From Tolypothrix carrinoi HA7290-LM1 (lineage in GTDB: Bacteria; Cyanobacteriota; Cyanobacteriia; Cyanobacteriales; Nostocaceae): 29,060 nucleotides of DNA. The position numbers were made by a program, and so were the translations under genes. The notes beneath the pieces were generated by a model that saw only the letters and a program-made list of their open reading frames with translations, was not told where the DNA came from and did no database searches. Shown here one piece after another: positions 3,553 to 29,060 of this stretch (its first letter is position 1; each line of letters starts with the position of its first letter). The stretch lies in assembly GCA_019358935.1 (NCBI GenBank), contig JAHHIK010000104.1, forward strand, positions 1-29,060, read 5' to 3'.

Positions 3553-4063
3553 TTACTGTATCAGGGTAAGCGAGGAACGCAGATTCAGCCGCAAAAGACG
3601 TAGCGATCGCATCCAAATTTTTGCCGGTTGATCAAAGAATGTAAAAATATCACCGTAACCGACGTTAGTTTTTTGATGATGTAGCCAATGTCTTTCCGGT
3701 GTAGTTATATATAAAACCTGACACAGCATCTTCAAAAACTTGGGAGTTTCCCAACCCAAGACACTTATGTGTCTCCACCATACATGAAACTGACCAAAAA
3801 GCAACCCACAAATAACGCCAACCGGAGAGAAAGCCCATAAGAATATTGCTAATAGCAAGTATGGCAAAGCACCCAAAATACCATCTAAAAGAACCTGGAA
3901 ATTGAAAGTTAAAATTGCGTAATGTTGATGTGTTTTTCTTCCAAGAGTGGTGCGTTTGCAAGTGAAGCCTACCAAAAACATGTTCTGGTATATGGTATAA
4001 GAAGGTAGAAAAAAAATCGCCAAAAAATAATAGTAGCCAAGCAACAGCGATCGCCTCAAGCAT
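3553..4063 (-). pseudogene. Fatty acid hydroxylase/sterol desaturase family membrane protein, split by a single frameshift near 3933-3937
   Basis: The N-terminal His boxes (YHIPEH, HLQTHH) are in ORF 3665..4063. The C-terminal His boxes (HVWWRH, HWLHH, YGDIFTFFD) are in ORF 3553..4059. Removing one A from the AAGAAAAAC run joins them. Confidence 0.8.
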
Positions 4064-13500: not shown

Positions 13501-16500
13501 ATGATTTATACAATCTTCCACCAATGACTGACCCAGATAAGCTGGTAGCGATGCGAATTTTAAAGACTATATGGTCTGCGGTTCATACAACAAATTCTTC
13601 AATAGCTCCATTAATTATATTTACAATGATGGAGCTATCCGTAAACTATGGAAATTCATCTTTTGCCGCTTTTGCCTATGTTTTATATGGTTTCCTTCTT
13701 TGTCGGACGCAATCTGACCTCGATTTTGGCTATCAGCTTGGCAAGCTATCGTTGAAAATATTGAAGCAATTTGATAGTTCAGAAATAGAAGGTAAGGTTA
13801 ACTTACTGTTTAACTGTTTTATCAGACCCTGGAAAGAACATAAACGCAACACTTTAGAATCTTTGCAATCAACGCTTAAACTATTAATGGAAACTGGAGA
13901 TATAGAATATGCTTCTTATGCAGCTATTAACTATTGCTCTAATTTAGTTTTAGTGGGAGAGCCTTTAGAATCTGTCAAGAAAACGTATAAAAATTATATC
14001 AGCTTCGTTGAATCTATTCAACAAGAATTTTCTCTGAATTATGCTAAAATATGGAGTCAATTAATATTAAATTTCATGGGGGATTCTAGAGAATCCAACA
14101 GACTGGTGGGAAAGCTGTTCGATGAAACTGAAATCTTACCCATTTTACAAAGAAATAATAACTTTCAATCATTGTTTGCCATCGATTTCGCAAAAACGTG
14201 GCTCAGTTATTTATTCAACGATTATACTACAGCAGTTAAGAATGGTGAAGATGCAGCAGGCAATAAACAAGCTTTAGAAGGTATATTACCTTATGCTGAA
14301 CATAATTTCTATTACTCTCTTTCTCTTTTAGCCAATTATCTTAGCCAAGAAGATCGAGAAAGAAAACAATATATAGAACAAGTGGCTGCTAACCAAAAGG
14401 AAATGAAAATCTGGGCAGTTCATGCACCGATGAATTTTCAGCACACTTACGATTTAGTGGAGGCAGAAAAAGCGCGAGTTTTGGGTCAAGTTGTTGAAGC
14501 AATGGATTTGTATGAACAAGCTATAAAAAAAGCAAGGGACAACGGATACATTCAACACGAAGCATTAGCTTATGAGTTAGCGGCAAATTTTTATCTAGCG
14601 CGTGGAATGGAAGAGTTTGCCCAACTATACATGACAAAGGCTCACTATAGCTATGTTCGCTGGGGAAGCACAGCAAAGGTCAATGATTTGGAACAACGGT
14701 ATCCTGATTTTTTTGCCAAAACCCCGTCAAGTTCCACCCAGACTACCACAACAATTTTATCCACTGAGTCAAAAACATCCTCGCAACTCGATTTAAACAG
14801 CATTCTCAAAGCTTCTCAAACTCTGTCGAGTGAAATTGTACTCAATACTTTGTTAGAAAAAATGATGAAAATTGTCCTCGAAAATGCGGGGGCAGAAAAA
14901 GGTTATCTCATTTTGAAGCAAGAAGAGCAATGGCTGATTCAAGCATCAGGAACGGTTACATCTGATGATATCGAAGTTTTGCAGTCTATTCCCATAGAAA
15001 CGGTCAGCGATCGCAACAATATATCAGTAGTTCCTCTTTGCATAGTCAATTATGTTATCCGTACCCAAGAGAGTCTTATTTTGAATGATGCTTTGCACTC
15101 AGGTAATTTTACCCGCGACCCATACATCGTTAAACACCAAACGAAATCAGTGTTGTGTATGCCGCTGTTGAATCAAAGCAAATTGGCGGGTCTGCTTTAT
15201 TTGGAAAATAACCAGACTATTGGAGCTTTTACTCCTGACCGTTTGGAAGTATTAAAGTTATTAACTAGCCAAATATTTATCTCAATTGAAAATGCAAAAC
15301 TTTACACAAACTTACAAGCTTATTCTACAGAATTATTGCAGGCTAACAGTCAACTACAAGCTGAAATTGGCGATCGCAAGCTAGCAGAAGAAGCGCTACG
15401 TCTCAGTGAAGAACGATTTCGATTGGCAATTGATAACATCCCTGATACATTTGTAATTTATGATGCCAAGCGGCGGTTCCAGTTTGTCAATGCTTTCGGA
15501 GTTAATCGCGGTGGTTTTCCTCTAGCAGCATATATTGGACATACGGATGAGGAGATACACCCAAAAGAAGTGACGAATGCGTATTTACCACTTTTGCAAA
15601 AAACTGTGGAGACGCGCACCAAGCAAACCGGAGAATGCAATATCACTTTGCCTGGTTGCTCTTTTACCGTAGTTGTCACCTACGTGCCGATTTTAAATGA
15701 GCATGGGGAAATTCATCAAATTCTTGGGATCACCCATGACATCACTGAGCGCAAACAAGCTGAGTCACAACTGCTGCACAATGCGTTTCACGATGCACTC
15801 ACAGGTCTACCCAACCGAGCTTGGTTTATGGAGTGCTTAAAACATGCGTGCGATCGAGCCAAACAACATGAGGATTATTTATTTGCTGTGCTGTTTCTCG
15901 ACTTGGATCGGTTTAAGGTGATCAATGACAGTCTCGGACATTTACTTGGAGACCAATTTCTGATTAAAATAGCAAGCAGGCTAAAAGCTTGCATACGCTC
16001 GATAGATACTGCTGCACGGCTTGGGGGAGACGAATTTACAATTTTGCTTGAGAAAATCGAGAATTTGTCAGAGGCAATTGAGGTGGTTGAGCGAATTCAA
16101 CAGCAACTGGCATTACCCTTTGACCTTGACGGGCAAGAAGTTTTCACTACCGCGAGTATTGGCATCGCTCTGAATTCGATACTCACCTATGACCAACCAG
16201 AAGATTTGCTGAGGGATGCTGACACGGCGATGTACCGAGCTAAGGTGCTGGGCAGGTCGCGTTACGAGGTGTTCCACCCAGATATGTATACTAATGCTGT
16301 GGACAGATTGCAATTAGAGACCGATCTGCGTCGAGCAATTGAACGCCAGGAGTTTCGGGTTTATTACCAACCGATTGTTTCGCTTTCTAGTGGCACAATT
16401 TCCGGTTTTGAGGCTCTGCTGCGCTGGCAGCATCCAGAGCGCGGTCTGCTTTCTCCGGCAGATTTTATCCCCCTGGCGGAGGAAACTGGACTGATTGTCG

Positions 16501-17081
16501 AGATTGGCTACTGGGTGCTTTTTGAGGCTTGCCGCCAGATGCAAGTCTGGCAAATGCGCTATCCTACGAGTTCCCTAGAGAAAATCAGTGTCAATCTCTG
16601 TGTCAAGCAATTTTCCCAAGCGGATTTGATTGAGCAGATTGCACAAATTTTGCACTCGACTGGTCTTGATGCGTGCAGTCTGATGTTAGAAATTACTGAA
16701 AGCGCAATTATGGAAAATGGTGATGAGGCAAATACCGCGTCACAACTTCGAGCGATGGGGATTAAGTTATCAATTGATGACTTTGGTACGGGCTATTCTT
16801 CATTAAGTCGTCTTTATAGCTTTCCGATTAATGTGTTGAAGATTGACCGTTCCTTCGTCAGCCCGATGGACGCTAATAACAGGAATTTAGAAATTATTGA
16901 GATAATTGTCACGCTGGCAGATAAACTAGGTATGGATGTGACTGCCGAAGGGGTAGAGACTCAAGAGCAATTAGCACTTTTGAGAAAGTTGAACTGTGAA
17001 TACGGACAGGGATATTTTTTCTCTCGTCCATTAGATAGTTCTGCGGCAGAGGCGTTAATTATGGGTGAACCTCGGTGGTAA
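10569..17081 (+). CDS. Multidomain Ser/Thr kinase - AAA ATPase - GAF - PAS - GGDEF - EAL signalling protein
   Basis: Kinase motifs VVLK, HKDINPSN, DFG, GTLAYISPEQTGR; Walker A GYSGVGKS; Walker B LVLFIDD; GAF SVLCMPLL...LYLENN; PAS ending HDITERK; HDALTGLPNR, LGGDEF; FEALLRW, DDFGTGYSS, AEGVET, GQGYFFSRP. Confidence 0.95.
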   Translation: MLTISAYHLVAQLYESANSLIYRGRRVDTQQPVVLKMLKDAYPTPERTAWFKREYEVTRNLTIPGVVDAYALFRDTERLVMVLEDFGGDSLDLLAIAGQLELCEFLKLAIAITDILSQIHAANIIHKDINPSNIVLNRTTGQVKIIDFGISTVLSRENPTLSNPNILEGTLAYISPEQTGRMNRAIDYRSDFYSLGATFYKLLTGILPFNSSDTLELVHSHIAKQPVPPHSVVGTCFLPSIVSDIVMKLMAKNAEDRYQSAYGLKADLEQCLHQLQTNGQIDVFALARQDICDRFQIPQKLYGRKREIEILLAAFTRVAGGEKENSSISTQSQTEKEAREQGAGSKGDDGSDGDSTPHNARATLVEVGDNGPMFPPSFHGGTLEGVISPCSPPPAPCLFVEMILVAGYSGVGKSALVRELHKPITARRGNFIWGKFDQYQRNIPYYALSQAFDELCKQLLTETEAVLNQWREKILAAVGNNGQVLIDVIPNLEQVIGTQPPVVQVEASQAQNRFNLVFQNFLKVICQKSHPLVLFIDDLQWADKASLNLLKIIMSDATIQYLLIIGAYRDNEVNASHPLMMTLEEIEKQGVLSSIHLDNLLVQDVNTFISEALKSPPTSTQPLTDLVYEKTQGNAFFTTQFLKSLYTEELLTFEYSLTPPLLRGATCVGGFPDLSKVAWAGGDLPRGWQWNVAQIQAKDITDNVVELMASNIGKLPASTQIVLQLAACIGNKFDLSTLSIIYQHQVIEVFADLSPAMQSGLVVSLNNKYKLIETADDLVANEVSFKFLHDRVQQAAYALIDEAQKTAIHLQIGRLLLQNTAPEALSDEIFEIVDHLNIGSDFVTDQLERDEIARLNLIAGEKAKSAMAYEAAVNYLNVGLDLLAEDSWQTQYDLTLSLYESAAYAEYLNTSYQRSELLSNVVLQQVKTVREKANVYETKIQLYIAQNQMQASIDIGLQFLKLLGISLSKSPPSKLVIDDLYNLPPMTDPDKLVAMRILKTIWSAVHTTNSSIAPLIIFTMMELSVNYGNSSFAAFAYVLYGFLLCRTQSDLDFGYQLGKLSLKILKQFDSSEIEGKVNLLFNCFIRPWKEHKRNTLESLQSTLKLLMETGDIEYASYAAINYCSNLVLVGEPLESVKKTYKNYISFVESIQQEFSLNYAKIWSQLILNFMGDSRESNRLVGKLFDETEILPILQRNNNFQSLFAIDFAKTWLSYLFNDYTTAVKNGEDAAGNKQALEGILPYAEHNFYYSLSLLANYLSQEDRERKQYIEQVAANQKEMKIWAVHAPMNFQHTYDLVEAEKARVLGQVVEAMDLYEQAIKKARDNGYIQHEALAYELAANFYLARGMEEFAQLYMTKAHYSYVRWGSTAKVNDLEQRYPDFFAKTPSSSTQTTTTILSTESKTSSQLDLNSILKASQTLSSEIVLNTLLEKMMKIVLENAGAEKGYLILKQEEQWLIQASGTVTSDDIEVLQSIPIETVSDRNNISVVPLCIVNYVIRTQESLILNDALHSGNFTRDPYIVKHQTKSVLCMPLLNQSKLAGLLYLENNQTIGAFTPDRLEVLKLLTSQIFISIENAKLYTNLQAYSTELLQANSQLQAEIGDRKLAEEALRLSEERFRLAIDNIPDTFVIYDAKRRFQFVNAFGVNRGGFPLAAYIGHTDEEIHPKEVTNAYLPLLQKTVETRTKQTGECNITLPGCSFTVVVTYVPILNEHGEIHQILGITHDITERKQAESQLLHNAFHDALTGLPNRAWFMECLKHACDRAKQHEDYLFAVLFLDLDRFKVINDSLGHLLGDQFLIKIASRLKACIRSIDTAARLGGDEFTILLEKIENLSEAIEVVERIQQQLALPFDLDGQEVFTTASIGIALNSILTYDQPEDLLRDADTAMYRAKVLGRSRYEVFHPDMYTNAVDRLQLETDLRRAIERQEFRVYYQPIVSLSSGTISGFEALLRWQHPERGLLSPADFIPLAEETGLIVEIGYWVLFEACRQMQVWQMRYPTSSLEKISVNLCVKQFSQADLIEQIAQILHSTGLDACSLMLEITESAIMENGDEANTASQLRAMGIKLSIDDFGTGYSSLSRLYSFPINVLKIDRSFVSPMDANNRNLEIIEIIVTLADKLGMDVTAEGVETQEQLALLRKLNCEYGQGYFFSRPLDSSAAEALIMGEPRW
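11574..11765. mobile_element. MITE-like insert (192 bp) in frame within the kinase gene
   Basis: Terminal inverted repeats AAAGAGGCA...TGCCTCTTT with internal (AGGGAGC)n and (CCCCTGC)n arms. It sits just before the Walker A strand VEMILVAGYSG. Confidence 0.7.
12541..12618. repeat. Nested REP-like repeat in frame within the kinase gene
   Basis: The outer CCCCCCTTGTTAAGGGG...GGGCTGGGGGGGATC is interrupted by AGCCACTTGC...GGGTTTCCC...GCAAAGTGGCGT (about 12560-12603). Confidence 0.7.
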
Positions 17082-17219: not shown

Positions 17220-17327
17220 CTATTTTTTCCAGGGTAGCTTAGTACCCATCTCAGTCAGCGCCGAAAAGACGAGATACAAAACTAGTACACCAATACTAAT
17301 AAGAAAAAGAACTAGGTCGTTATTCAT
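17220..17327 (-). CDS. Small single-TM protein (35 aa)
   Basis: MNNDLVLFLISIGVLVLYLVFSALTEMGTKLPWKK from the ATG at 17327. The longer track ORF gains its upstream extension from the antisense of a duplicated kinase fragment. Confidence 0.6.
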   Translation of the reverse strand: MNNDLVLFLISIGVLVLYLVFSALTEMGTKLPWKK

Positions 17328-17376
17328 TATAATAAGTAGGTGGGTTGAATTAGATATAAAACCACCGTAGGGTGGA

Positions 17377-17643: not shown

Positions 17644-18240
17644 TTATGAGACAGGACAACCCTGGTTATATATAATGTTGGCAATTTCGTGCAGTGATTT
17701 GAAATTGCTTATCAACCAGCCTGTTGAGGTTTTCTCTAAAGTGAAATCATGTATCGCTATATGTTCAGGTTGATATCCTATACAACGATTTGGGTAAAGC
17801 CAATATGTAACATTATTTACTTTTTTACTAGCTTTTATTTTTACCTTTTCGTTATGAATCGCTTGATAATTTTCAAAATTAGTTTTGCTATAATCGTAGT
17901 TCATGTTAATAAAACTGAGTTTTTCACCAGTAGGTAATTGAGAATTTGCTTCTATTAACCTTTCTCTAGCCTTAAGTGCTTCCCCCGTGTAAGATTTGCG
18001 TAGCTCATCTTTGTTTAAATTCTTAAGAGCATTACGAAAAGTAATGTAAGAAGTATCAACAACTGATTCTATTTCTGATTGTTCCGGTGTAGGTTCAGGG
18101 GTTGGCAGTTTAGTGTCACCTGGAGGAGCGGTCTCACCTGGAAGAGTTATAGGTTTATGAGAAATAAAGAACGGTGAGATAGCAGTAATGACTGCTGCTA
18201 TTCCAATTAGCCACATATAGCGACCTGGAGGAGAATTCAT
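17644..18240 (-). CDS. Membrane-anchored hypothetical protein, possibly with an NTF2-like/ARC6-IMS-like C-terminal domain
   Basis: N-terminal TM, Pro-rich linker (PTPEPTPE), then YTGEALK and a terminal FTLEKTSTGWLISNF strand pattern. Confidence 0.65.
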   Translation of the reverse strand: MNSPPGRYMWLIGIAAVITAISPFFISHKPITLPGETAPPGDTKLPTPEPTPEQSEIESVVDTSYITFRNALKNLNKDELRKSYTGEALKARERLIEANSQLPTGEKLSFINMNYDYSKTNFENYQAIHNEKVKIKASKKVNNVTYWLYPNRCIGYQPEHIAIHDFTLEKTSTGWLISNFKSLHEIANIIYNQGCPVS

Positions 18241-18462: not shown

Positions 18463-19038
18463 TTATTTTGCAGTTCTAACACAAGGCGCTTCATTAGTGG
18501 AAGGGGGGTCAGCGAAAATTGCTAAAGTGCTATATTCAGGGTTCCCTTCGCCATATAGTACTCGAAATGCATACAACTTTGTTTTGCCTTGTTTTTCAGT
18601 AACTACTGTTAAAAGCGTATTACTAGTATTAGGCAATCCGGCAATTTTAAGTTTGGGAATTCGTCTAAGTTGAATTACATTCGCGGCTGAGTTTTTACAA
18701 TCTCCTTGACTAACATTGCGTTCTTGACCAAACTGCATACACATCGGACCGTCAAAATCTATAGTTACCTGTGAAGGGTCGTTTAACCAAACTTTCTTAA
18801 TTGTTTCTCCGGCTTGAATAAAACTTAAGTTTGTTCCTTGTTGATACCAAATATCGATCTGAGGTGTTGCTCCCCCCAAACCCTGTGCTTGGCAGGAAAA
18901 CATCGAACGAAGAACGGCATTATTAGCTAAAACACGACCTGCAACTAATAAAATTGCAGTTGAAAAAATCAAGGTAGCCAGATGTAATAAATAAGATTTA
19001 TCTGGGGTTTCTCCTGGAAATTTTGTCTCGTTTTTCAT
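18463..19038 (-). CDS. Exported T4SS-cluster protein, VirB9-like by position
   Basis: Signal-like segment followed by a beta-rich domain (GTNLSFIQAGETIKKVWLNDPS; TLLTVVT; LYAFRV). It overlaps the upstream gene by 4 bp (ATGA). Confidence 0.6.
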   Translation of the reverse strand: MKNETKFPGETPDKSYLLHLATLIFSTAILLVAGRVLANNAVLRSMFSCQAQGLGGATPQIDIWYQQGTNLSFIQAGETIKKVWLNDPSQVTIDFDGPMCMQFGQERNVSQGDCKNSAANVIQLRRIPKLKIAGLPNTSNTLLTVVTEKQGKTKLYAFRVLYGEGNPEYSTLAIFADPPSTNEAPCVRTAK

Positions 19039-20750
19039 GGCTGGAAAGTTTGAATTACATATAGTTCAACTTCTTTACCTGGGGGCAGAAACCAAACGTT
19101 AGTTTGTTGATTCTGTCTTCTAGTGAAAGCTTGTTGATTGCGTTGGTTAATTTGGGTACCTAGAGTAGTCGCACCACCTTCCAAAACCCCGGCTAAGACG
19201 TTGCGTCTGCTGGAGTTGCGAGAACTACTCCTTCGTGCATAGCATCGGTTTCTCTCTTCACGATCCTCAATAGGTATATCACCACAGTACTCCGGGTATT
19301 GATAATCAGGAGTATTATATATCTGTGCTGCTTTACCAACACCATTCAAGACGAATCCTCCTACATCCGCTATCCCTACCCCAGACCCCCCTTCATTGGA
19401 AAATCGGCTTGCTATGAGAGGTTTGCCTTGAGGAGCGCGAATCGTTAGTGCATATGGCGGTAAGCTTTTTTCTATGAAGCTGTTATTATTTTGGAGAATA
19501 ACTTTGACTACATCCAACTGTACGAAGCCTTGCTCGGAAATAGAACGAACTTGAACTAAGAACTGGGTTTTTGCAGGTAAAGCGATCGCACCATCTACAG
19601 ATTTTAATGGCTCTTTCAAAACCGCTACAAATACGTCTTTGCCGCTTTCGTCTTTTCTATTACTATTAGTAGTTGACCTAGTACTTTCCCCGAATACAGC
19701 GGTCGCAAATACAGCTTTCGCCTTAGTTCCTACAGCCACGGATTTCGGGGTCTGCTGTTTTGTTTGGCTGACCGCAGGGGCTGACTCTTCTTCTGGTTCG
19801 TCGTCTGGCTCGGTATTTGTTGCCTGTAACCGAGTATTATTTACAAGAGGTGGAGGAGGAGTTGCTTGAACAGCACTTGTACCAGTGATAGAAACCATAC
19901 CGTAGCTACCTAATTTTGCTAACTTTGCCCATTCCTGAAGCGGATCTGGTGTGGGTTTGGGAGTTGCTGTAACTATTTGCCGAGTGTTTGCTGCAACTAT
20001 CGGCAAACGTGATGGTAAAATTTGAGAGTTAACAGGCTTTTGTAGAATCGGCTTTAGTGCGATCGCCTTTTGGGGAATAGGCTTTTGGGGAATAGGCTTT
20101 TGTGGAGCAGAGGGTACTTTAACGATACGCTCAACAGTGACTGTGCGAGGCACATAAACTGTTCGCACGGGTGTTGGTATCCTTTGCAGTGGTATCCTCG
20201 GTGTATTGACAGAAGCTGACCGTTGTGCTTGTGGAGTCGGTCGAGATGCAAGCTGAGGAGAAGGCGTTGGTTTTTGAAGTCTCAACTTTTGTTGTGCTGC
20301 TTTCACCGCTTCTGCTTGTTCAGTCAGGGCTAATTTAGTTTTTAAAGTCTCTAGTTCTGATTGTAGCTGTTGAGGGCGGGATTCGCTGATTGGTTGCGAT
20401 CGCGTGGAAACAGAATCATTCTTTTTTGGCTGTTGCTTGCCAGTGTTCATTAGCTGCGACAAAAACACCCCAGCCACCAAAACTATACCCAAAGTACCAG
20501 CACCCACCAAGCCTAACTTAGCAAACGGGTTAGATGAAAGAGGTTCAAGAGTGCGAACTTCTTGTGGTTCAGACGAAGGCTGCACTCCTGAAGTTGATTC
20601 TTCTTGTGCTTGGTCGGTATTAGCTTCGGAAGATTCTTCTTGCAAGCCAACCAATCTTGCCATCCGTGATTCCCAATCTAAAGAATCTAATTCGGGTGGA
20701 CTAACTCGATTTGGTGGCAGATTTTCTGAAGGAATTGAATATCCAGTCAT
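19035..20750 (-). CDS. TrbI/VirB10-like protein
   Basis: Cytoplasmic N-terminus, one TM (NPFAKLGLVGAGTL...), coiled coil, long Pro-rich linker, and a C-terminal beta domain (VAVGTKAKA...ALPAKTQF...WFLPPGKEVELYV). Confidence 0.75.
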   Translation of the reverse strand: MTGYSIPSENLPPNRVSPPELDSLDWESRMARLVGLQEESSEANTDQAQEESTSGVQPSSEPQEVRTLEPLSSNPFAKLGLVGAGTLGIVLVAGVFLSQLMNTGKQQPKKNDSVSTRSQPISESRPQQLQSELETLKTKLALTEQAEAVKAAQQKLRLQKPTPSPQLASRPTPQAQRSASVNTPRIPLQRIPTPVRTVYVPRTVTVERIVKVPSAPQKPIPQKPIPQKAIALKPILQKPVNSQILPSRLPIVAANTRQIVTATPKPTPDPLQEWAKLAKLGSYGMVSITGTSAVQATPPPPLVNNTRLQATNTEPDDEPEEESAPAVSQTKQQTPKSVAVGTKAKAVFATAVFGESTRSTTNSNRKDESGKDVFVAVLKEPLKSVDGAIALPAKTQFLVQVRSISEQGFVQLDVVKVILQNNNSFIEKSLPPYALTIRAPQGKPLIASRFSNEGGSGVGIADVGGFVLNGVGKAAQIYNTPDYQYPEYCGDIPIEDREERNRCYARRSSSRNSSRRNVLAGVLEGGATTLGTQINQRNQQAFTRRQNQQTNVWFLPPGKEVELYVIQTFQP

Positions 20751-20837
20751 AAGTAATTTTAAATTGAGTGTTCAACAATCCAATTGTGGCAAGCATCTTC
20801 AGCGTTGACACCATTTATCTATAGAAATGAGCCTAAT

Positions 20838-20892
20838 TAGCCCACGCAGGTGGGCTTTGTTTGTCTAGCCCCAGGCTTCCAGCCTGAGGGCG
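20838..20892. repeat. REP-like double hairpin
   Basis: AGCCCAC-GCAG-GTGGGCT and CAGGCT-TCC-AGCCTG. Confidence 0.7.
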
Positions 20893-20974
20893 AATGAAGC
20901 GCAACATCACGACGAATTATATAACTAGATATAAATTCGACGTGCGATTACTTAGTATAGTTTAACTTATAATT

Positions 20975-21637
20975 TTATGAACATTTTTTATCTTGTATTT
21001 CACAGATATTATAAATTTTTAATCTAGCTTCGCCAAGTCGATAAGCTGCCAAGTTCAAAGGTAACGGTGAGTTTGGTAGTGAAGCGGCTTGTTCATCAAT
21101 TGCTCTAACTAAAATTTGTTTATTAAAAGAAACTGATTTTCCCAATCTATCAGAATTGGTAAAAATTATTTGATTAGCAAACATTTCCACTTTCCACTTA
21201 CCATCTTCTATTTTTGTGGGTTGAGAAATGCTTTGTATAACCAATACATTTTCAGTTCCTCTACTTAAGTTTTCAGTGGGACTAATTTCTGACTCTAATT
21301 TTGGCTGCAATTCATTCGCTATCAGTTCAGAACTAACTTCCCAAACAGTTTTTGGTTGCTGTTGCTGCGACCAAGTAAGCATTAAAGTCATAGTTTCACC
21401 CACAAAGCGCCGAATAGTCTGAGGATCTCGCTCTAAATTTAGTTTGGGGTCTACTGTTATGGCATGTCCATCAGCAAGTTGCACTAAGCTTTGAGGTGTT
21501 AATCGTCGCTGTAACTGCTGCAACATAGACCAGTGGAAGAACAGTACTAATAAAGTGAGCAAATGCAAACCAAAAGTTGCGACAGCAAATAATGGTAAAA
21601 TACTGCTTTTCTTATTTTCCGACTTAAGTATCTGCAT
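20975..21637 (-). CDS. Bitopic T4SS-cluster protein, VirB8-like (paralog 2)
   Basis: One N-terminal TM, LVQLADG, ERDPQTIRRFVGETMTLMLTW, GKWKV, FNKQILVRA, LKIYNI. Confidence 0.65.
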   Translation of the reverse strand: MQILKSENKKSSILPLFAVATFGLHLLTLLVLFFHWSMLQQLQRRLTPQSLVQLADGHAITVDPKLNLERDPQTIRRFVGETMTLMLTWSQQQQPKTVWEVSSELIANELQPKLESEISPTENLSRGTENVLVIQSISQPTKIEDGKWKVEMFANQIIFTNSDRLGKSVSFNKQILVRAIDEQAASLPNSPLPLNLAAYRLGEARLKIYNICEIQDKKCS

Positions 21638-21744
21638 TAATATTCTCCCAAATAATACAACGCAAAAACCCTCTCAAACTCTTATTTATTGGCGTACTTG
21701 GCACCCTAGGCGGTTCGTTTTTCATTCTCTTAAAGAAATTAAAA

Positions 21745-21870
21745 TATAGCAATCCTAAATAAGTTGTGAGATTTGATTTTAAAACTCTCTTTCTCTTTCT
21801 CCGTGTTCTCTGTGCCTCTGCGGTTCGTTTACTCAAGATATATTTTCACAAATCAGATAGGATTGCTATA
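21745..21870. mobile_element. MITE-like element (126 bp) with terminal inverted repeats and TA ends
   Basis: Perfect 13-bp TIR TATAGCAATCCTA...TAGGATTGCTATA with a TTGTGA/TCACAA extension. It abuts the stop codon of 21871..22689. Confidence 0.8.
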
Positions 21871-22689
21871 TTATTTAATAAAACTATCAGTTCTTTGTCT
21901 ATTACCGCATACATTTATATCTTGATTCTGGTTATTGTATTCATCGATTAAACATAAATTACGAATTTCGTAAATTTCTAGTTTATCGGCGCGGACACTA
22001 TAAATTGCTTTTTGCAGAACAGTGGTATTATCAACTTGTGGATAAGCAAAAGAATCTACCGCCCGGACAAGTAAATCTTTATTAAAACGAGTTACTATTG
22101 TTCTATTGTCAGCTTGTTTTTTTTGAATCAAGTCAGCTACCATCCCAACTCGCCATTTACCCAAACCAATTTTTTCAGGTGGATAAACTCGCTTAATAGC
22201 TAACTGTCCGGAAATAACTTGACGGGGGTTATTAGAAAAAACTTCTGGGGGTGTCATTTCCGCAATTTGGCTTAAGAAACCTTTGCGAAAATCTTCAGAT
22301 AAGGCAAAACTGGCTATCCAACTTGTAGTACTAACTTTTTGGCTACCCCCTCGTAAAGTTTGAATTGATATTCCTGCATCTGCTTGAGGTTGTGTGACTT
22401 CTTCGATAGATTGTGGTGGAAGTTTTCCCGACCAGTTAAACATTGATGTCATCGTTTTGCTGACGAATTGCCGAATTGCTTCTGGTTCTCTTTCCACATC
22501 AGGAAGATTTGCTGGTTTGCCATCTATCAGTTGCACAAAGTTAGGAGGTTTTCTCAAGCTGAGTTGGCGAATATTTATGCCTTGAAATATTAATAAAAAT
22601 ATAGCCGATAGATGCAAACTGAAAGTAGCGATCGCAAAAATTGTTAAAATACTTCCTGTTCGTTGTCTTTTCTCCAGTAAACGTACCAT
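21871..22689 (-). CDS. Bitopic T4SS-cluster protein, VirB8-like (paralog 1)
   Basis: One N-terminal TM, FVQLIDG, EREPEAIRQFVSKTMTSMFNW, GKWRV, FNKDLLVRA, LEIYEI. Confidence 0.65.
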   Translation of the reverse strand: MVRLLEKRQRTGSILTIFAIATFSLHLSAIFLLIFQGINIRQLSLRKPPNFVQLIDGKPANLPDVEREPEAIRQFVSKTMTSMFNWSGKLPPQSIEEVTQPQADAGISIQTLRGGSQKVSTTSWIASFALSEDFRKGFLSQIAEMTPPEVFSNNPRQVISGQLAIKRVYPPEKIGLGKWRVGMVADLIQKKQADNRTIVTRFNKDLLVRAVDSFAYPQVDNTTVLQKAIYSVRADKLEIYEIRNLCLIDEYNNQNQDINVCGNRQRTDSFIK

Positions 22690-22713
22690 TTTCTCATCCC
22701 CCTTACTTGAGAT

Positions 22714-23775
22714 TTATACCCTCTCCCTCACCCACGAAGCCGTATTGCTGATAGCACTAAAGACTGCAAATCCTCCAGCAGCAGCCACAAATAAAGATAC
22801 AATCGGGGCTAAAATTCCCAGAAAAATTATAAACCACATTAAGTCTGGATCGGCATTAGGATTCTGTCCCGGTCCATTAACAATAACTGCGGCAGTTAAT
22901 ATGGCAATAATATTAAATGAAATCTTAGAAATCCCTACAGATAAAAACCCGGTAAGCCATGCAAAAATGGGTTTACCAGCTACAGGTAGTAAAGATGCAC
23001 CCACAGCTAACGGTCCCAAAGCTGCTATCAGCAACATTGTAGCTTCTATCAAATTTTGAAAAGCATATTGCAATGAAATTAAAAAGTTTTTGATGCTAGT
23101 TTGGACTGTAGAACCCAACAAAGAATCAAATGAATTTTCCGAGATATAAACTGTAGGATCTGCAATATTATTTACTTTATTTTCTAGTCTATATATCCAA
23201 TTTATATCTCTTCCGTATAAATTTTTATATTCCTCCAAGAGTTTGTCAGCTTCTTCCTTGGCTTTGACAAAGCATTGATTTTGTTGTTCACCAGTAAGTG
23301 ACTGGCAAGGACGCAATAAAGAACCGACTATATCTTCAGCAACACTCATATTCAGTGCTTGCTGATAAGTTTGATTAGCGTCTGCTGTTGCCACTACTTG
23401 CTGATTCACTCCATTGAGATAATTCCTTACCCCTAATGTCAAATTCGACAAGACAGTGCCGTTTCCGGAATTGGTTAATAGTATCACTACTACAAAAGGC
23501 CAAATTAAAGCCGATATTGGACGGGAAAATTCGCTGTTGATAGCATCTTTTAGCCACTGTAACATAAAAAACAGTAGGGTTCCGACGGCAAAAAAGGTAC
23601 CCAGACTCGTCAGCGCTCCATATATATTAGTAGTAGTGTCATTTTGTAATAAATTTACCCATTGTTGATCCCAACTTTCGGCAATACTTGTAGCGGTTGC
23701 GGCTCCAGCTCCATTGACGAGAACATCATCATTGTTGCCAATTTGAAGTAAAAAAGTTGGGAAAATATCTTTCAT
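22714..23775 (-). CDS. Polytopic T4SS-cluster membrane protein, VirB6/TrbL-like
   Basis: Two N-terminal TMs, a large loop with a Cys pair, then LIAALGPLAVGASLLP...WL and further TMs ending in LAPIVSLFVAAAGG. Confidence 0.7.
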   Translation of the reverse strand: MKDIFPTFLLQIGNNDDVLVNGAGAATATSIAESWDQQWVNLLQNDTTTNIYGALTSLGTFFAVGTLLFFMLQWLKDAINSEFSRPISALIWPFVVVILLTNSGNGTVLSNLTLGVRNYLNGVNQQVVATADANQTYQQALNMSVAEDIVGSLLRPCQSLTGEQQNQCFVKAKEEADKLLEEYKNLYGRDINWIYRLENKVNNIADPTVYISENSFDSLLGSTVQTSIKNFLISLQYAFQNLIEATMLLIAALGPLAVGASLLPVAGKPIFAWLTGFLSVGISKISFNIIAILTAAVIVNGPGQNPNADPDLMWFIIFLGILAPIVSLFVAAAGGFAVFSAISNTASWVRERV

Positions 23776-23869
23776 TTTTATAGATTTCCTTTAAAAGGAA
23801 GTTAAGGCTCAATTAAATTATTTATGATAAGTGTAAATAAAGGTTTCTCGTAGTAAATAAATTTTAAGC

Positions 23870-23943
23870 GTAGGGTGTGTTAGACGAAAGTACGGCATCA
23901 AATTCGTCATGGTGCGTTAGGCAAATGCCGTAACGCACCCTAC
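23870..23943. repeat. GTAG-type REP-like palindrome
   Basis: GTAGGGTGTGTTA...GGTGCGTTAGGCAAATGCCGTAACGCACCCTAC. Confidence 0.75.
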
Positions 23944-23980
23944 TACTCACTACGTAAGAATACGTTCTTAATCATGAATT

Positions 23981-24760
23981 TTAGTTGTTAACTTTTCTGC
24001 CAAACAAATCTGTTTGAGAAGTGGTTCGCAAAAGTCGCGCTGCTTCTGCGGATGCGTCTACTCTTCTAGCACGATTTGTATCTTCCATTTGCTGAGAAAG
24101 ATTTGCGAGATTTAAATTAGTGTATTGCAAAGATTGATTCGTCTGTATTGTTTGACCAAGTGTTTCGGCTACAATTTTTACTTGTTCGCGTTGTATTCTA
24201 ACGGTTTGCACTTGAGTAGCACCTGTCAATTGTGTTAATGCAGTTCCCGCCGTACTAGCCTGAGCAAGATTCCTGATAAAATCTGGAATTTGTCCGATCA
24301 GATTATTCTCTGTCTCATCCTGCGCGTCAAACACGCCAATATTTTCCAGTCTATTTTCAGTATCTTGTAGCTTTGTTTTTGACCTATTTTGACCTTCACC
24401 CAAAATACCTGCGGCTGAACTACGAGTAATTAAACGATTTCTTTCATTACTAACTAAAGTTGAACGTACTTCAGGATTATTTTCAAACTTATCTGATATG
24501 GAGTTGAGAAATCTATCATTTTCTCCGGTATCAAAAGGGTTAGGTATTTTAAATTCTCCTGTTACGTTAGGAATGGCATATTCAGATTGAAGTTCTAGTT
24601 TTAAACTGTCGTTTCCATTTACATTTACATTATCTGTAAAATATTTTTGTAAATCGTTAGAATATGATTTAAAATCAGTCCAAACTTTGCCTAGTTGCGC
24701 TGTTGCTGGTAGGATGATGAGGAATGATAGAGAAAGTGTTAAAAGGGCGATTTTTTTCAT
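23981..24760 (-). CDS. Secreted helical T4SS-cluster protein, VirB5/TrbJ-like by position
   Basis: Sec signal MKKIALLTLSLSFLIILPATA|Q and a Q/N-rich helical C-terminus. It lies between the VirB4-like and VirB6-like genes. Confidence 0.55.
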   Translation of the reverse strand: MKKIALLTLSLSFLIILPATAQLGKVWTDFKSYSNDLQKYFTDNVNVNGNDSLKLELQSEYAIPNVTGEFKIPNPFDTGENDRFLNSISDKFENNPEVRSTLVSNERNRLITRSSAAGILGEGQNRSKTKLQDTENRLENIGVFDAQDETENNLIGQIPDFIRNLAQASTAGTALTQLTGATQVQTVRIQREQVKIVAETLGQTIQTNQSLQYTNLNLANLSQQMEDTNRARRVDASAEAARLLRTTSQTDLFGRKVNN

Positions 24761-24903
24761 GGGTCGTAATCGGGAAAAATATCTATAGGAATTTTATTTC
24801 ATTTTTGAAATACGGCTTTTGAGAAACGAACCGCAGAGAGGCAGAGAACACAGAGGAAGAGGAAGGAGAGGGTTTGACGAATGAATGGTTTAACATTGCT
24901 ATG

Positions 24904-27648
24904 TTAACTACCACGTAATGAAGCTACTAATTGACGTGCAAATGTAGAAATTGCTTCATATTTATCGCTGTGATGTCGCATAATTTTACTCCGTGCTGCT
25001 TGTTCGTTGGGGTTGTTAGCTACTACTGCTAATTGTTCGTAACCTGGATAATAGCGGCAAAAGGTATAAATACCGTTATTATCTAACAGCCATTGGCTAT
25101 AAATGCCTTCTTTGCGAGGAAAGAAGTTTTCTGAAGCATTGCGAGAAATAATTTCACGGGGATATTTTAATATATCCATGAAACTATCGACGGCAACGGG
25201 TTGAATGCGTCCGATTAATCGTGTGCTTAAGTTTTGTAAAATCTTAGATGCGGCTTTAGATTTGGCGATGGTATCGGGGTCTTGTGCTGATAAAATAACT
25301 CTAATTCCAGCTTTTGCACCGTTGGCACAAATTCTGCCAACTAAGTCAGCAATTTGGTCAAATTCAAATAGAATTGGTGCTTCATCAATGAAAAATATGG
25401 AAGCTGGACTGCTAAGTGCGCGTCGTAATGCTGCTGAATAAGCACTTAAAGATAACACTGCTGCATCTTCATTATCTGATAGGTTTCTCAGAGCAAAAAC
25501 CAAAAGTTGTGCATCGGTGGGAAAGCTAGATGGTGCAGAAATCGATTGTCCGACGCGACTAGAAAGCCAAAATCGCAAGCGCAATTGAATTTGACTCAAG
25601 GCATCTTCAACTCTGCCACTTACAGAGTTGATTTGTAGATGTTCTGTTGTGCAAAAATAAAGAAAATCTCTTAATGTGGGGGTTTTCTGCCAAGCTGGAC
25701 TGCCAAATCCCCCTGCAATTGCTATTCGATATCGCTCTTTTATACCTTCATCTGCAAAGAATGCTGTTAAAGCCAAATTAAGAAGCGATCGCACGGTTTG
25801 CGATAACAATGGATTTTCTGTGGATGACCCTAAAACCATTGTCATTAAGGCTGATTCTAAAAAGCCTGTATAATCAAGCAGACGATCGCGTTGTTGTTCT
25901 GGATCTAGCGATCGCAAGTCTGGCTGCTCAAATAAGTTATTCGATTGTTTAGAAATATCAAAATATGCTCCACTCTTCTCCATAAACTCTGTATAGTCGG
26001 TGAAGGTAGATGTCCCATCTGGTTTGGGGAAATCTAACGCCACTACCGGAATATTATGCGCTAAAGCTTGAGTTAAAATTCCTGACACCAATACTGATTT
26101 ACCAGCACGAGTTGTCGCAAACAGCGCTAAATTTTTATGCTCGTTAAATAAATCTAAATATACCGGTGTTCCTCCCTCCTCGGCAATCAATTCAAAACCT
26201 TGGCGATCGCCAACTTTAGTTAATACTAAAGGCATTAATCCCGGTACTTCACTTGTTAAATACAACTGCCGACGGTTGAAGGGTTTTGCTAACAAACCTT
26301 CCCAAACTATCGGTAAAGTTTGCAGCCAAATTTTCCAAGCATATTCTGTTTCTCTAATTACCCTTGCTGGACGTTGAAAACAGTTTTCAATATATCTTAT
26401 TGCTTCGTCTAATTTCTCCACACTTGGACGATGTACAAAAATCGCTATCCCCGTATAAATAGGTACTGCACCTTCATATAATTGTTCTTGTGCTGCTACG
26501 GATTTTCTTAATTTTAATTGAGCGTTGACATCAATAGTTCGGCTTTTTTCTTGAGCCGTCAGTGCTGTCACATTCGACTGCTTCAGCACTCGTTGCAAAG
26601 TATTTTTTACCAATGCTGGATTTGCCGCAGTTAACTCACAAAAAATCTCTGTATCAACAACCGTTTCTCTTGCCAACAATTCCCATAAATAGCGCAGTTG
26701 AGAAGATTTATTTTGCCAACCACCAGGTTTTTCTAAAAATGTTAATGCACCAATATAATTATTCTTAACATGAACCCACGAGCGATCGGCGCAAGGTACA
26801 CTAGATTCCATCAACAAAGTTGTACTGTGGATATTATCTACAAGTAATTTGGTACTAGCTAAATCTGAATAAGCTTCTTCGTGCAGTCCATTTTCATCTA
26901 AAGTCATTAATTGCGGAATTTCTATCGGTGGGGTATCATTAAATCTTCTCCATATTTCTCCCCAAAGTTCATTACTAGTTAATGGCTTAACATCCAAAGC
27001 CATTTGATTAGATAATATTTGTTCCCAGCGATAAAAACCTTGTTTGTAAGCATTGCTCACAATGGTTTCTATACGCTGATTTTCAACTTCTGCTATATCT
27101 CCTTTGAATTTCAACCACCACGATTCAGCTTTGGCTAAAAGCCTTTCTATCGAATCATCTGTATTGGTGGAGTTGGGTTCAACGGTATAAGTTACATAAA
27201 TTTTGAGAAATTTCGGTTTGCGAATACCAGAAGCAGTAAGTTCTTTTGTTCTTGCTCTTTCCGCCATTAACAAGTATTTTATATCTTTTGATGGCGTTTG
27301 TTTGATGATTGAACTTAGTTCTTTTTGTCGCTTTTTATCGGAACTAAAAGAACTCAAATGAAAGGTTATTCTTTCATTAGCGGGAATGTCTTTTAAACCC
27401 GATTCAATATTACTAATAATTGTATCTATTTGGTCTGTTCTTAAAGTTGTATGAATACCTCGACATTCAAAACCAAAAACAAAGCAAAATCTATTTTTTT
27501 GAGTTCCCTTTGTCAAAAGATAAGCGCCTATATCACGTCCCCCAAGTGAGACGCGCAACATTGTCGCTAGGTGTAAAGCATCTTCAAATGGTGTTAATCT
27601 CTCGCTACCTGCGACGCCGACGCTTTGTTTTCCGATTTTTTGCTTCAT
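24904..27648 (-). CDS. virB4: VirB4-like type IV secretion ATPase
   Basis: 914 aa with a C-terminal P-loop domain: variant Walker A ATTRAGKS, VVALD, PTLRDF, Walker B FFIDEAP, and GAKAGIRVILSAQ. It is preceded by small membrane genes. Confidence 0.82.
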   Translation of the reverse strand: MKQKIGKQSVGVAGSERLTPFEDALHLATMLRVSLGGRDIGAYLLTKGTQKNRFCFVFGFECRGIHTTLRTDQIDTIISNIESGLKDIPANERITFHLSSFSSDKKRQKELSSIIKQTPSKDIKYLLMAERARTKELTASGIRKPKFLKIYVTYTVEPNSTNTDDSIERLLAKAESWWLKFKGDIAEVENQRIETIVSNAYKQGFYRWEQILSNQMALDVKPLTSNELWGEIWRRFNDTPPIEIPQLMTLDENGLHEEAYSDLASTKLLVDNIHSTTLLMESSVPCADRSWVHVKNNYIGALTFLEKPGGWQNKSSQLRYLWELLARETVVDTEIFCELTAANPALVKNTLQRVLKQSNVTALTAQEKSRTIDVNAQLKLRKSVAAQEQLYEGAVPIYTGIAIFVHRPSVEKLDEAIRYIENCFQRPARVIRETEYAWKIWLQTLPIVWEGLLAKPFNRRQLYLTSEVPGLMPLVLTKVGDRQGFELIAEEGGTPVYLDLFNEHKNLALFATTRAGKSVLVSGILTQALAHNIPVVALDFPKPDGTSTFTDYTEFMEKSGAYFDISKQSNNLFEQPDLRSLDPEQQRDRLLDYTGFLESALMTMVLGSSTENPLLSQTVRSLLNLALTAFFADEGIKERYRIAIAGGFGSPAWQKTPTLRDFLYFCTTEHLQINSVSGRVEDALSQIQLRLRFWLSSRVGQSISAPSSFPTDAQLLVFALRNLSDNEDAAVLSLSAYSAALRRALSSPASIFFIDEAPILFEFDQIADLVGRICANGAKAGIRVILSAQDPDTIAKSKAASKILQNLSTRLIGRIQPVAVDSFMDILKYPREIISRNASENFFPRKEGIYSQWLLDNNGIYTFCRYYPGYEQLAVVANNPNEQAARSKIMRHHSDKYEAISTFARQLVASLRGS

Positions 27649-27973
27649 GGTTTACGAATAGTATGCTTTGATAACGAGCAAAGCCTCTAGTCCAAGCAGG
27701 AACACCAACAAATTTACTTAAAAAACGCCAACTCCTACCACCTGTTAATATCCACCAAGTTGCCATTCCCCAAATAGTAATTAGTACCGTCCACAACCAT
27801 TTTTGAAAGTCGTCTGGAAAAATTCCCCCAAAAATTCCATTGATGATAAAATAAGCAGCTAGGGCAATAAGCGTCCAAGGAAGGACTTGATCGGCGGGGA
27901 TTGGTCCTAATGAAGGTTGGCTTCCTAAAATTTGATTGACTGGACGAAAGTCTTTTTCTTTGTCTTGAGTCAT
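27605..27973 (-). CDS. Small two-TM protein, VirB3-like
   Basis: 122 aa with two TMs; it overlaps the VirB4-like start by 44 bp. Confidence 0.65.
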   Translation of the reverse strand: MTQDKEKDFRPVNQILGSQPSLGPIPADQVLPWTLIALAAYFIINGIFGGIFPDDFQKWLWTVLITIWGMATWWILTGGRSWRFLSKFVGVPAWTRGFARYQSILFVNHEAKNRKTKRRRRR

Positions 27974-28009
27974 GGAATTTTTAGCTTTTCTTCATTTTAT
28001 CTAAATAAA

Positions 28010-28633
28010 TTATGGATTACTATTAGGAGCGCCAATTATAAAGCCTGTGAGAACATCAGCAATTGTCACGGCGACAACTACTAATAAGGGAGTTTTGGCG
28101 ATAGTTTGCCAATCTTCATCTTTGCGAACTGCGTTAATAACACCGACCAAAGAAACTGCTATGTAAAGTAGGTAAATTGCCCGCAACACGTTGAATATTA
28201 AACTAACTGCTTGGGTACCATTATTTACTGCTCCATCTCCTGTGGTGAGATTCTGTTTAAAAAAACCTTCGGCTCGACTAAAAAATTGGGCTTGTGCGGG
28301 AACTGCAAAATAGTCTAACCAAAATAAACTCAAGACGATCGCTACTGCTAAGATTTGTAACAATATGAGCGATCGCTTGGGTAGATGTACCTGGTGCCCA
28401 ATTTGCTGTATAATTATTGTAATTAAACTACCAACAAGTAAACAAAAAAGCAGGATAGGACTTTTCAGGCTGATAACGCTTAGAAATACTGCACAAGCAA
28501 TCAAAAATGGAACAGATTCAATCAGCCGAAAACGCCAGTATTCGAGTGTTACTGTCAATTTAGGAGATATTTTGCTCGCACTACTAGTCAAAGTTTTGAG
28601 AAAAACTCTCTCATGAATACTTTGTCTGGACAT
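28010..28633 (-). CDS. Pilin/VirB2 (TrbC)-like membrane protein with an N-terminal extension
   Basis: A PAQA|QFF processing-like site is followed by two hydrophobic helices separated by RKDEDW. It is the first gene of the cluster. Confidence 0.6.
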   Translation of the reverse strand: MSRQSIHERVFLKTLTSSASKISPKLTVTLEYWRFRLIESVPFLIACAVFLSVISLKSPILLFCLLVGSLITIIIQQIGHQVHLPKRSLILLQILAVAIVLSLFWLDYFAVPAQAQFFSRAEGFFKQNLTTGDGAVNNGTQAVSLIFNVLRAIYLLYIAVSLVGVINAVRKDEDWQTIAKTPLLVVVAVTIADVLTGFIIGAPNSNP

Positions 28634-28789: not shown

Positions 28790-28899
28790 ACGAAAATTAA
28801 TTAAAAGTTAAATTTTGATACATGAATCAAGGTTTTTGTCAAGTCTAATTTAGATGCGATCGCCAAAAATACCTTTAGTGGTTAGTGGGAATTTGAAGA

Positions 28900-28940
28900 G
28901 GGGAAAAGGGGAAAAGGGGAAAGGGGAAACGGAAAAGGGG
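28900..28940. repeat. STRR-like (GGGGAAA)n tract
   Basis: Seen directly. Confidence 0.8.
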
Positions 28941-28971
28941 TTAGTTGCTGTTCGCTAATATCTGGACAAGC

Positions 28972-29060
28972 CTACCCATCATTTCCCGTTTGTCCAGCTA
29001 TCAACCGTTCAACGTATTCTCTAAGCCGTTTTTGCCAGTTAGGAACGGCTTTCAATTTGT
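28972..29060 (-). CDS. 3' end of a small hypothetical protein (partial)
   Basis: Open frame KLKAVPNWQKRLREYVERLIAGQTGNDG*, an amphipathic helix resembling small cyanobacterial hypothetical proteins. Confidence 0.5.
   Translation of the reverse strand, partial: KLKAVPNWQKRLREYVERLIAGQTGNDG

Follow-up and report, generated by a model that had tools for sequence, protein, structure and literature searches.

Several type IV secretion systems (T4SSs) work without VirD4, and they do so to quite different ends: the Ptl system of Bordetella exports a folded periplasmic protein, ComB of Helicobacter pylori imports DNA, and Trw of Bartonella builds adhesive pili (PMC12857230). A further class of T4SS, mating-pair formation type C (MPF_C), was defined from pCC7120alpha of the cyanobacterium Nostoc sp. 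PCC 7120 (Guglielmini et al., 2014; PMC4027160). We analysed here a stretch of 29,060 nucleotides (the window) of Tolypothrix carrinoi HA7290-LM1 (assembly GCA_019358935.1, contig JAHHIK010000104.1), which holds a nine-gene operon of this class between positions 28633 and 18463. Comparison with its relatives indicates that a conjugative MPF_C operon has very probably become a chromosomal gene set kept by the host. The original prediction of a resident, domesticated T4SS is borne out, while what the machine does we can but infer.

Gene order in the operon is that of the pCC7120alpha system (alr7204-alr7213, with the MobV relaxase alr7199), and its genes are homologous to alr7204-alr7211. It differs from that system in the absence of alr7212, of the coupling protein alr7213, of the MobV relaxase and of the integrase, in the presence of two VirB8 proteins, in a shortened VirB9 (lost altogether in a subclade), and in its chromosomal location and largely vertical descent. 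ComB is the closest analogue: it, too, is chromosomal, comprises VirB2-4, 6 and 8-10 with VirB4 as its sole ATPase, and has neither VirD4 nor VirB11 (PMC12857230). It belongs, however, to a different class of T4SS; the Tolypothrix operon keeps a gene at the VirB5 position and shows no VirB7, and DNA uptake, established for ComB, is for this operon a conjecture. Ptl and Trw are likewise VirB machines kept by their host without a substrate receptor (PMC12857230). They are MPF_T systems of animal pathogens, by contrast with an MPF_C system without known cargo in free-living phototrophs. A further comparison is the Ced apparatus of archaea, which is induced by DNA damage and is not known to have outer-membrane core proteins. 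Devoted to DNA import, it is again a domesticated homologue of conjugation systems (PMC9905601).

The nine open reading frames (ORFs) are intact, uninterrupted and all on the minus strand. They code for proteins of 207, 122, 914, 259, 353, 272, 220, 571 and 191 amino acids and are separated by 36, -44, 143, 205, 24, 233, 224 and -4 bp, that is, two overlapping pairs and four gaps of 143-233 bp, in agreement with the first description of the locus. Eight of the nine proteins match MPF_C genes of pCC7120alpha in the same order, both VirB8-like proteins matching alr7209; direct matches cover seven families at 23-53% identity, and the VirB5-position gene is linked to its counterpart through intermediate copies only. 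Hydropathy fits the protein order described beforehand, with one difference: at the threshold used, a single clear membrane segment, not two, is apparent in the VirB3-like protein. The predicted VirB architecture holds by sequence or fold for VirB4, VirB8, VirB9 and VirB10, while the labels VirB2 and VirB5 reflect position and predicted anatomy. In PCC 7120 the orthologous genes are all0471-all0463, identified via the upstream motif discussed below and gene lengths, which fit the nine genes in order, rather than by direct sequence comparison.

First comes a pilin-like protein at the VirB2 position (28010..28633, minus strand; all0471), 44% identical to alr7204, with a conserved PAQAQFF motif resembling a leader cleavage site followed by two hydrophobic helices; a pilin alignment used as query retrieved no sequence match in the PDB. 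MPF_C homologues of VirB3, VirB6 and VirB8 have been reported, the same account giving no homologue of VirB2 in this class (Guglielmini et al., 2014; PMC4027160). The VirB3-like membrane protein (27605..27973, minus; all0470) is 41% identical to the product of the pCC7120alpha gene preceding alr7206 and evolves slowly (dN/dS 0.09-0.16). So does the VirB4 ATPase (24904..27648, minus; all0469; dN/dS 0.06-0.12), which is 53% identical to alr7206, matches TIGR00929 with E 7e-13, below the curated cut-off, and has Walker A and B motifs invariant in 139 of 139 copies of its clade, a set that contains some redundancy. At the VirB5 position (23981..24760, minus; all0468) stands a fast-evolving protein with a signal peptide (dN/dS 0.19-0.66), predicted to be all-helical (pLDDT 75); fold and Atlas searches gave generic helical matches only, the best at Z 7.7. 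The VirB6-like polytopic protein (22714..23775, minus; all0467) has five hydrophobic segments and 32% identity to alr7208. Two VirB8-like bitopic proteins follow: copy a (21871..22689, minus; all0466) is 32% identical to alr7209, and copy b (20975..21637, minus; all0465) is 30% identical to copy a. The closest Atlas clusters of copy a are VirB8 (0.87-0.89), which is a lead only, and a VirB8 alignment gave nothing useful against PDB sequences. Copy b, as a duplicate, is typical of the domesticated clade, mobile operons having one copy. The VirB10-like protein (19035..20750, minus; all0464) combines a proline-rich linker with a TrbI domain (Pfam E 2e-5, below the gathering score) and is 24% identical to alr7210. 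Last comes a protein of 191 amino acids (18463..19038, minus; all0463) that lacks the C-terminal helical part of the mobile VirB9 copies and carries four cysteines specific to the clade in the alignment. Its model folds as the VirB9 N-terminal domain alone, with a Foldseek match to the TrwF/VirB9 N-terminal domain (E 7e-6) and a superposition on residues 27-139 of Xanthomonas VirB9 (Z 12.0, rmsd 2.6, 103 residues aligned). By homology of VirB4, of VirB9 and VirB10, and of VirB3, VirB6 and VirB8, the operon is a T4SS; it is of class MPF_C in that its families cluster round VirB4 in the pCC7120alpha order and its VirB4 is nested within mobile MPF_C diversity, alr7212 being absent.

VirB4 copies fall into two groups, at 75-100% and at no more than 63% identity. 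The copy in the window falls in the first, its nearest named relatives, at 96-98%, being records of Tolypothrix, Hassallia and Plectonema. Of 161 Nostocaceae genomes, 122 carry this group and 39 lack it; six carriers have two distinct copies, and one contaminated assembly shows a duplicate. Outside the family it was found in one of 236 sampled genomes. These sequences form a single clade within the mobile MPF_C diversity, 55 of 55 grouping together in FastTree with support 99. The sister lineage, G265 (L198, L221; contig C56), has two VirB8, a full-length VirB9 and no adjacent coupling protein, and has kept, divergently placed, an 859-codon gene that is a divergent relative of alr7212; it is possibly an intermediate stage. 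The locus is chromosomal in complete genomes. Plasmid records that matched number 134, and a single one falls in the clade: the linear replicon of Gloeothece PCC 7822 (880 kb, non-mobilizable), which bears a rearranged copy without coupling protein or VirB9, so that the plasmid location envisaged as a refutation did not materialize. Rearranged clade copies without VirB9 were also seen in Snowella/Merismopediaceae and uncultured records (L098, L099, L102, L103 and L145, Gloeothece included), and all of these probably stem from sideways transfer out of Nostocaceae.

Nor is the phylogeny plasmid-like: the clade broadly follows rpoB, though a few copies have moved sideways. In the main subclade, VirB4 distances correlate with those of rpoB (Mantel rho 0.58, n=21; 0.60 between lineages, n=14), with visible conflicts in G005, G023 and G175, so that inheritance appears mostly, not purely, vertical. 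A recent transfer, suggested by a VirB4 dS of 0.15 against 0.53 for rpoB, was considered and dropped, since dS is comparable or a little higher in the flanking genes and GC3 is high in rpoB. All nine genes have dN/dS below 1 in three genera and are under purifying selection, the VirB5-position protein and VirB10 evolving fastest (up to 0.66). Internal stops are absent from 128 of 129 clade VirB4 matches, the exception (G073) having four. On a rpoB tree of 60 genomes, 22 of them non-carriers included by choice, no fewer than nine changes are needed, and 16 of the 18 sampled members of one clade have no operon. A second subclade (13 sequences) is without VirB9, and in G016, G023 and G050 none was found genome-wide with the VirB9 query used.

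The functions that would make such an operon conjugative are missing. A scan of 22 ORFs in the window revealed neither coupling protein nor relaxase nor integrase, and MobV, the integrase, alr7212 and alr7213 of pCC7120alpha used as queries gave no match there. The neighbours (a kinase-GGDEF-EAL protein, a sugar ABC transporter, Rrf2, a methyltransferase and a chromate transporter) are ordinary host genes, as had been stated. The window is the entire contig C104 of a genome of 7.96 Mb in 184 contigs. It ends at 28934..29060 in a multicopy repeat of 127 bp, similar to the end of an insertion sequence, which breaks the assembly and recurs at some 15 other contig ends. Across this repeat, synteny with G001 (where the start of contig C76 maps about 150 bp from the end of C104) places the glycosyltransferase/carbamoyltransferase cluster of C76 directly upstream; a glycosyltransferase cluster precedes the operon also in G001, G006 and G009. 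No transfer genes therefore lie just beyond 29060, where their discovery had been set as a ground for rejection. The same holds in the relatives: none of 80 named clade loci, with flanks of up to 10 kb (some shorter), and none of 10 wider loci has a coupling protein, relaxase or integrase nearby, whereas in a control of 17 lower-identity loci 13 show the coupling protein and the remaining four are cut short. No coupling protein was matched in eight of nine relatives holding only the clade VirB4. In five of five near-complete carriers, the coupling protein (PF10412), MobV (Mob_Pre) and alr7212 are absent genome-wide, in a search that covered MobV among the relaxases and PF10412 among the motors, and in which alr7212 had no positive control. 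The operon is not a mobile element.

What, then, does it do? A first hint lies at 28794..28823 (minus strand), 190 bp upstream of the first gene, where three 8-mers recur with an 11-bp period as a direct repeat resembling a Pho box, a candidate site for SphR. It scores 20 of 24 against three copies of YTTAAYYW, by plain count of consensus matches, as does the site of the organism's own phoD. The triple-repeat architecture of the SphR regulon is present, with a modest score (top 3-5% of promoters): 20 or more is reached by 3.3% of 3236 promoters of the genome, 5.2% of AT-matched ones and 4.4% of a shuffled control. Upstream regions of the clade reach it in 42 of 100 cases, as against 0 of 23 mobile ones, and among 38 further loci spread over genera the best site lies at -165 to -210 in 17. 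SphR sites had already been predicted for hypothetical units, all0471-all0468 (rank 15) and Ava_2887-2884 (rank 10) (Su et al., 2007; PMC1906773). The pattern of these two sites occurs in two of 161 genomes, each time about 1.1-1.2 kb upstream of the clade VirB4 on the same strand.

A second hint comes from the neighbourhood. The 6 kb upstream contain a gene for PhoX, PhoD, PhoA, PhnD or a PstS-like protein in 21 of 57 loci of the genomes examined and in 35 of 69 named loci; for mobile loci the figure is 0 of 21, and such a gene is present in 0.75% of random 6-kb windows. The families are unrelated: PhoX in short and long forms, PhoD, PhoA, a phosphonate-binding protein and, in Nostoc, a PstS-like protein. 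Independent events are few, the 35 named loci being 27 of Nostoc type and eight of Rivularia type. In Nostoc-type loci a GloVer-repeat protein lies between the PstS-like gene and the operon (L132 7158-8348; L242 4864-6072), and proteins of about 600 residues without Pfam or NCBIfam match stand just upstream in several genera (L039 12812-14641, L251, L252, L263 and L231). Taken together, repeat and neighbours make it somewhat more probable than the contrary that the operon is tied to phosphate starvation.

Our best explanation as a whole, a tentative one, is a host-owned, ComB-like envelope machine for nutrient scavenging. Near the root of the heterocyst-forming cyanobacteria, the chromosome very probably took over a conjugative MPF_C operon, which has since lost alr7212, coupling protein and relaxase, acquired a second VirB8 and a shorter VirB9, and otherwise been retained as a gene set of the host. 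Having no substrate receptor, the machine can take up neither DNA nor proteins from the cytoplasm. By analogy with Ptl, ComB and Trw, VirB4 with VirB3, VirB6, both VirB8 and VirB10 would most likely assemble or cycle pilin in the periplasm and at the cell surface. The pilus of this importer might catch extracellular DNA, or similar organic-phosphorus polymers, and bring them to the periplasm; phosphate released there by PhoX, PhoD and nucleases would then be taken up through Pst. This mechanism is a guess to which we commit ourselves while regarding it as doubtful. We rank DNA import first because the gene set is closest to that of ComB and because the phosphate context gives import a purpose; export after the manner of Ptl, a role as pilus only, a developmental role and help in trans come next, in that order.

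A fair number of observations weigh against this explanation. Only 11 of the 38 genus-spread loci score 20 or more, and the motif, being AT-rich, could serve another regulator of the OmpR type. No phosphate gene lies upstream in 36 of 57 loci, including those of the window's own genus; neighbours shared among kin come by descent, and mobile windows were shorter than clade windows (3.8 vs 5.7 kb). The loss of VirB9 in one subclade is awkward for any outer-membrane channel and suits none of the models that involve one. Transcription as such, seen in Nodularia and in PCC 7120, speaks for the explanation. In Nodularia the operon (BMF81_00294-00300, seven genes recognized by length only, 13 kb beyond gyrA-lnt) is transcribed under phosphate-replete conditions, VirB4 having 185-201 normalized counts, with 610-662 for gyrA and 50-67 for lnt (Teikari et al., 2018; PMC5955973). 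On methylphosphonate its seven genes hardly move (log2 0.01-0.28) while pstS and phoA rise by 2.2 and 3.6 (PMC5955973), which argues against strong Pho control. No response came either from two phoD genes and an alkaline phosphatase of 2.1 kb (0.07-0.24; PMC5955973), and with phoD unresponsive the test is weak, though not supportive. In PCC 7120 growing on ammonium, transcript levels of the operon genes span 0.1-3.5 RPKM, comparable to pstS1 (1.5); once nitrogen has been stepped down, all0469 and all0468 are up 5.6-6.8 fold at 12-21 h and most others 1-3 fold, the rise of all0463 starting from a single read (Flaherty et al., 2011; PMC3141674). This induction, measured in one series without replicates and at low counts, speaks for nitrogen or development, as does the presence of all0463 on a heterocyst-specific gene list (PMC4365693). 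In addition, all0465 appears in a list of predicted FurC boxes (PMC10406281). Two lichen metatranscriptomes contain part of a Nostoc copy as well (shares 0.39 and 0.29), and they do not enter the evidence weighed here.

Among the alternatives, the one that fares best, if an improbable one, is a two-step exporter, which would push phosphatases or other large proteins, once folded in the periplasm, across the outer membrane or display them at the surface. Ptl, which exports a folded periplasmic protein without VirD4 (PMC12857230), sets the precedent, what lies upstream often codes for enzymes that are exported or for large proteins with repeats (PhoX, PhoD, PhoA, beta-helix and GloVer-repeat proteins), and a genome survey found no typical type II secretion system in cyanobacteria (Abby et al., 2016; bioRxiv 031039). 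A VirB9 cut to its N-terminal domain or lost, in an operon without VirB7 homologue, fits poorly with this role. Slightly less probable still is a structural function without cargo, for which Trw is the precedent (PMC12857230): a pilus for adhesion, or a surface structure, that would serve in forming colonies, in attachment or in symbiosis. The VirB5-position protein and VirB10 are indeed the fastest to evolve, and losses concentrate in the one clade where 16 of 18 members have no operon. This would leave the phosphate-gene neighbourhood unexplained, and the identity of VirB5 is one of position.

We consider quite unlikely a developmental or cell-to-cell role within the filament, at the heterocyst envelope, the septum or the continuous periplasm. 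Near-restriction to Nostocaceae, dispensable VirB9 and the nitrogen step-down response with the heterocyst listing of all0463 speak for it; yet that induction is small and unreplicated, 39 family genomes do without the operon, and it is present in records of unicellular Gloeothece and Snowella. Fainter again is the prospect of a resident mating-pair helper that still transfers DNA when other elements provide coupling proteins and relaxases in trans. In its favour, Tolypothrix itself has coupling proteins (C9, C91) and MobV relaxases (C7, C82, C24) alongside other transfer regions, and such elements exist in many relatives. Within the scope of the searches given above, the operon nevertheless persists undamaged in genomes where coupling protein, MobV and alr7212 all went undetected. 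Finally, a decaying, functionless remnant of an integrated element, which scattered losses and the four stops of G073 might evoke, is largely refuted by near-universal freedom from stops, strong purifying selection and transcription.

The Tolypothrix genome harbours two further MPF_C operons that look mobile, one on C9 (L001, L002) with coupling protein, integrase and ParE, the other on C24 (L003, L004) with NikA and transposases; C91 has a separate pair of coupling protein and alr7212. On the plasmid-like contig of L004 (12823-16158, minus), a protein of 1111 residues has a weak Pfam match to eukaryote-type RdRP (E 6e-4, below cut-off). In genus g130 (L200, L202, L203) an MPF_C operon with coupling protein is present once per genome in four genomes, on a 9.7-Mb contig in one, and is possibly a resident integrative and conjugative element. 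In the window itself, a tenth co-oriented ORF (17644-18240, minus; 198 residues, membrane-anchored, of no family) is matched in 0 of 80 related loci and lies outside the conserved unit. A small peptide of about 37 residues (17220-17330, minus) is present in seven of these 80 loci. Convergent with the operon, and adjoining it in several genomes of the genus, is a fusion of 2170 residues (10569-17081, plus) with Ser/Thr kinase, AAA, GAF, PAS, GGDEF and EAL domains. Further away, a fatty-acid hydroxylase region (3553-4063, minus) has two overlapping ORFs in different frames and is possibly frameshifted. A scan for promoters and terminators in the window gave chance-level results only. In G018, G015 and G101 (L036, L053, L164) lnt and gyrA come immediately after the operon, perhaps an old chromosomal site.

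The literature searched comes close to this system without describing it. Cyanobacterial T4SSs lacking a relaxase are given one sentence (Guglielmini et al., 2011; PMC3158045), protein-secreting classes are listed as MPF_T and MPF_I only (Abby et al., 2016; bioRxiv 031039), a further study treats plasmids (PMC8600333), and in a T4SS review of 2025 the word cyanobacteria is absent. Locus-tag searches returned nothing for all0468-all0471 and no tags of N. punctiforme PCC 73102, and we found the present chromosomal system described nowhere in the topic literature, subscription papers and most supplements being outside reach. New here are the neighbourhood of phosphate-scavenging genes and the upstream repeat resembling a Pho box.

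Apart from two proteobacterial classes, hardly any non-conjugative T4SSs are known. The operon described here is real, functional-looking and widespread, and if the main nitrogen fixers on land, in the benthos and in symbiosis share a domesticated MPF_C system as a lineage, a well-studied group would gain an envelope system hitherto unrecognized. That most heterocyst-forming cyanobacteria have a T4SS controlled by phosphate starvation and used in nutrient scavenging, with DNA as food or by phosphatase export, is a possibility we put at clearly less than even; if true, it would be the first non-conjugative MPF_C system and would give T4SSs a role in mineral nutrition. As the orthologue all0471-all0463 sits in a genetically tractable model and comes with a specific regulatory prediction, the question is directly testable.

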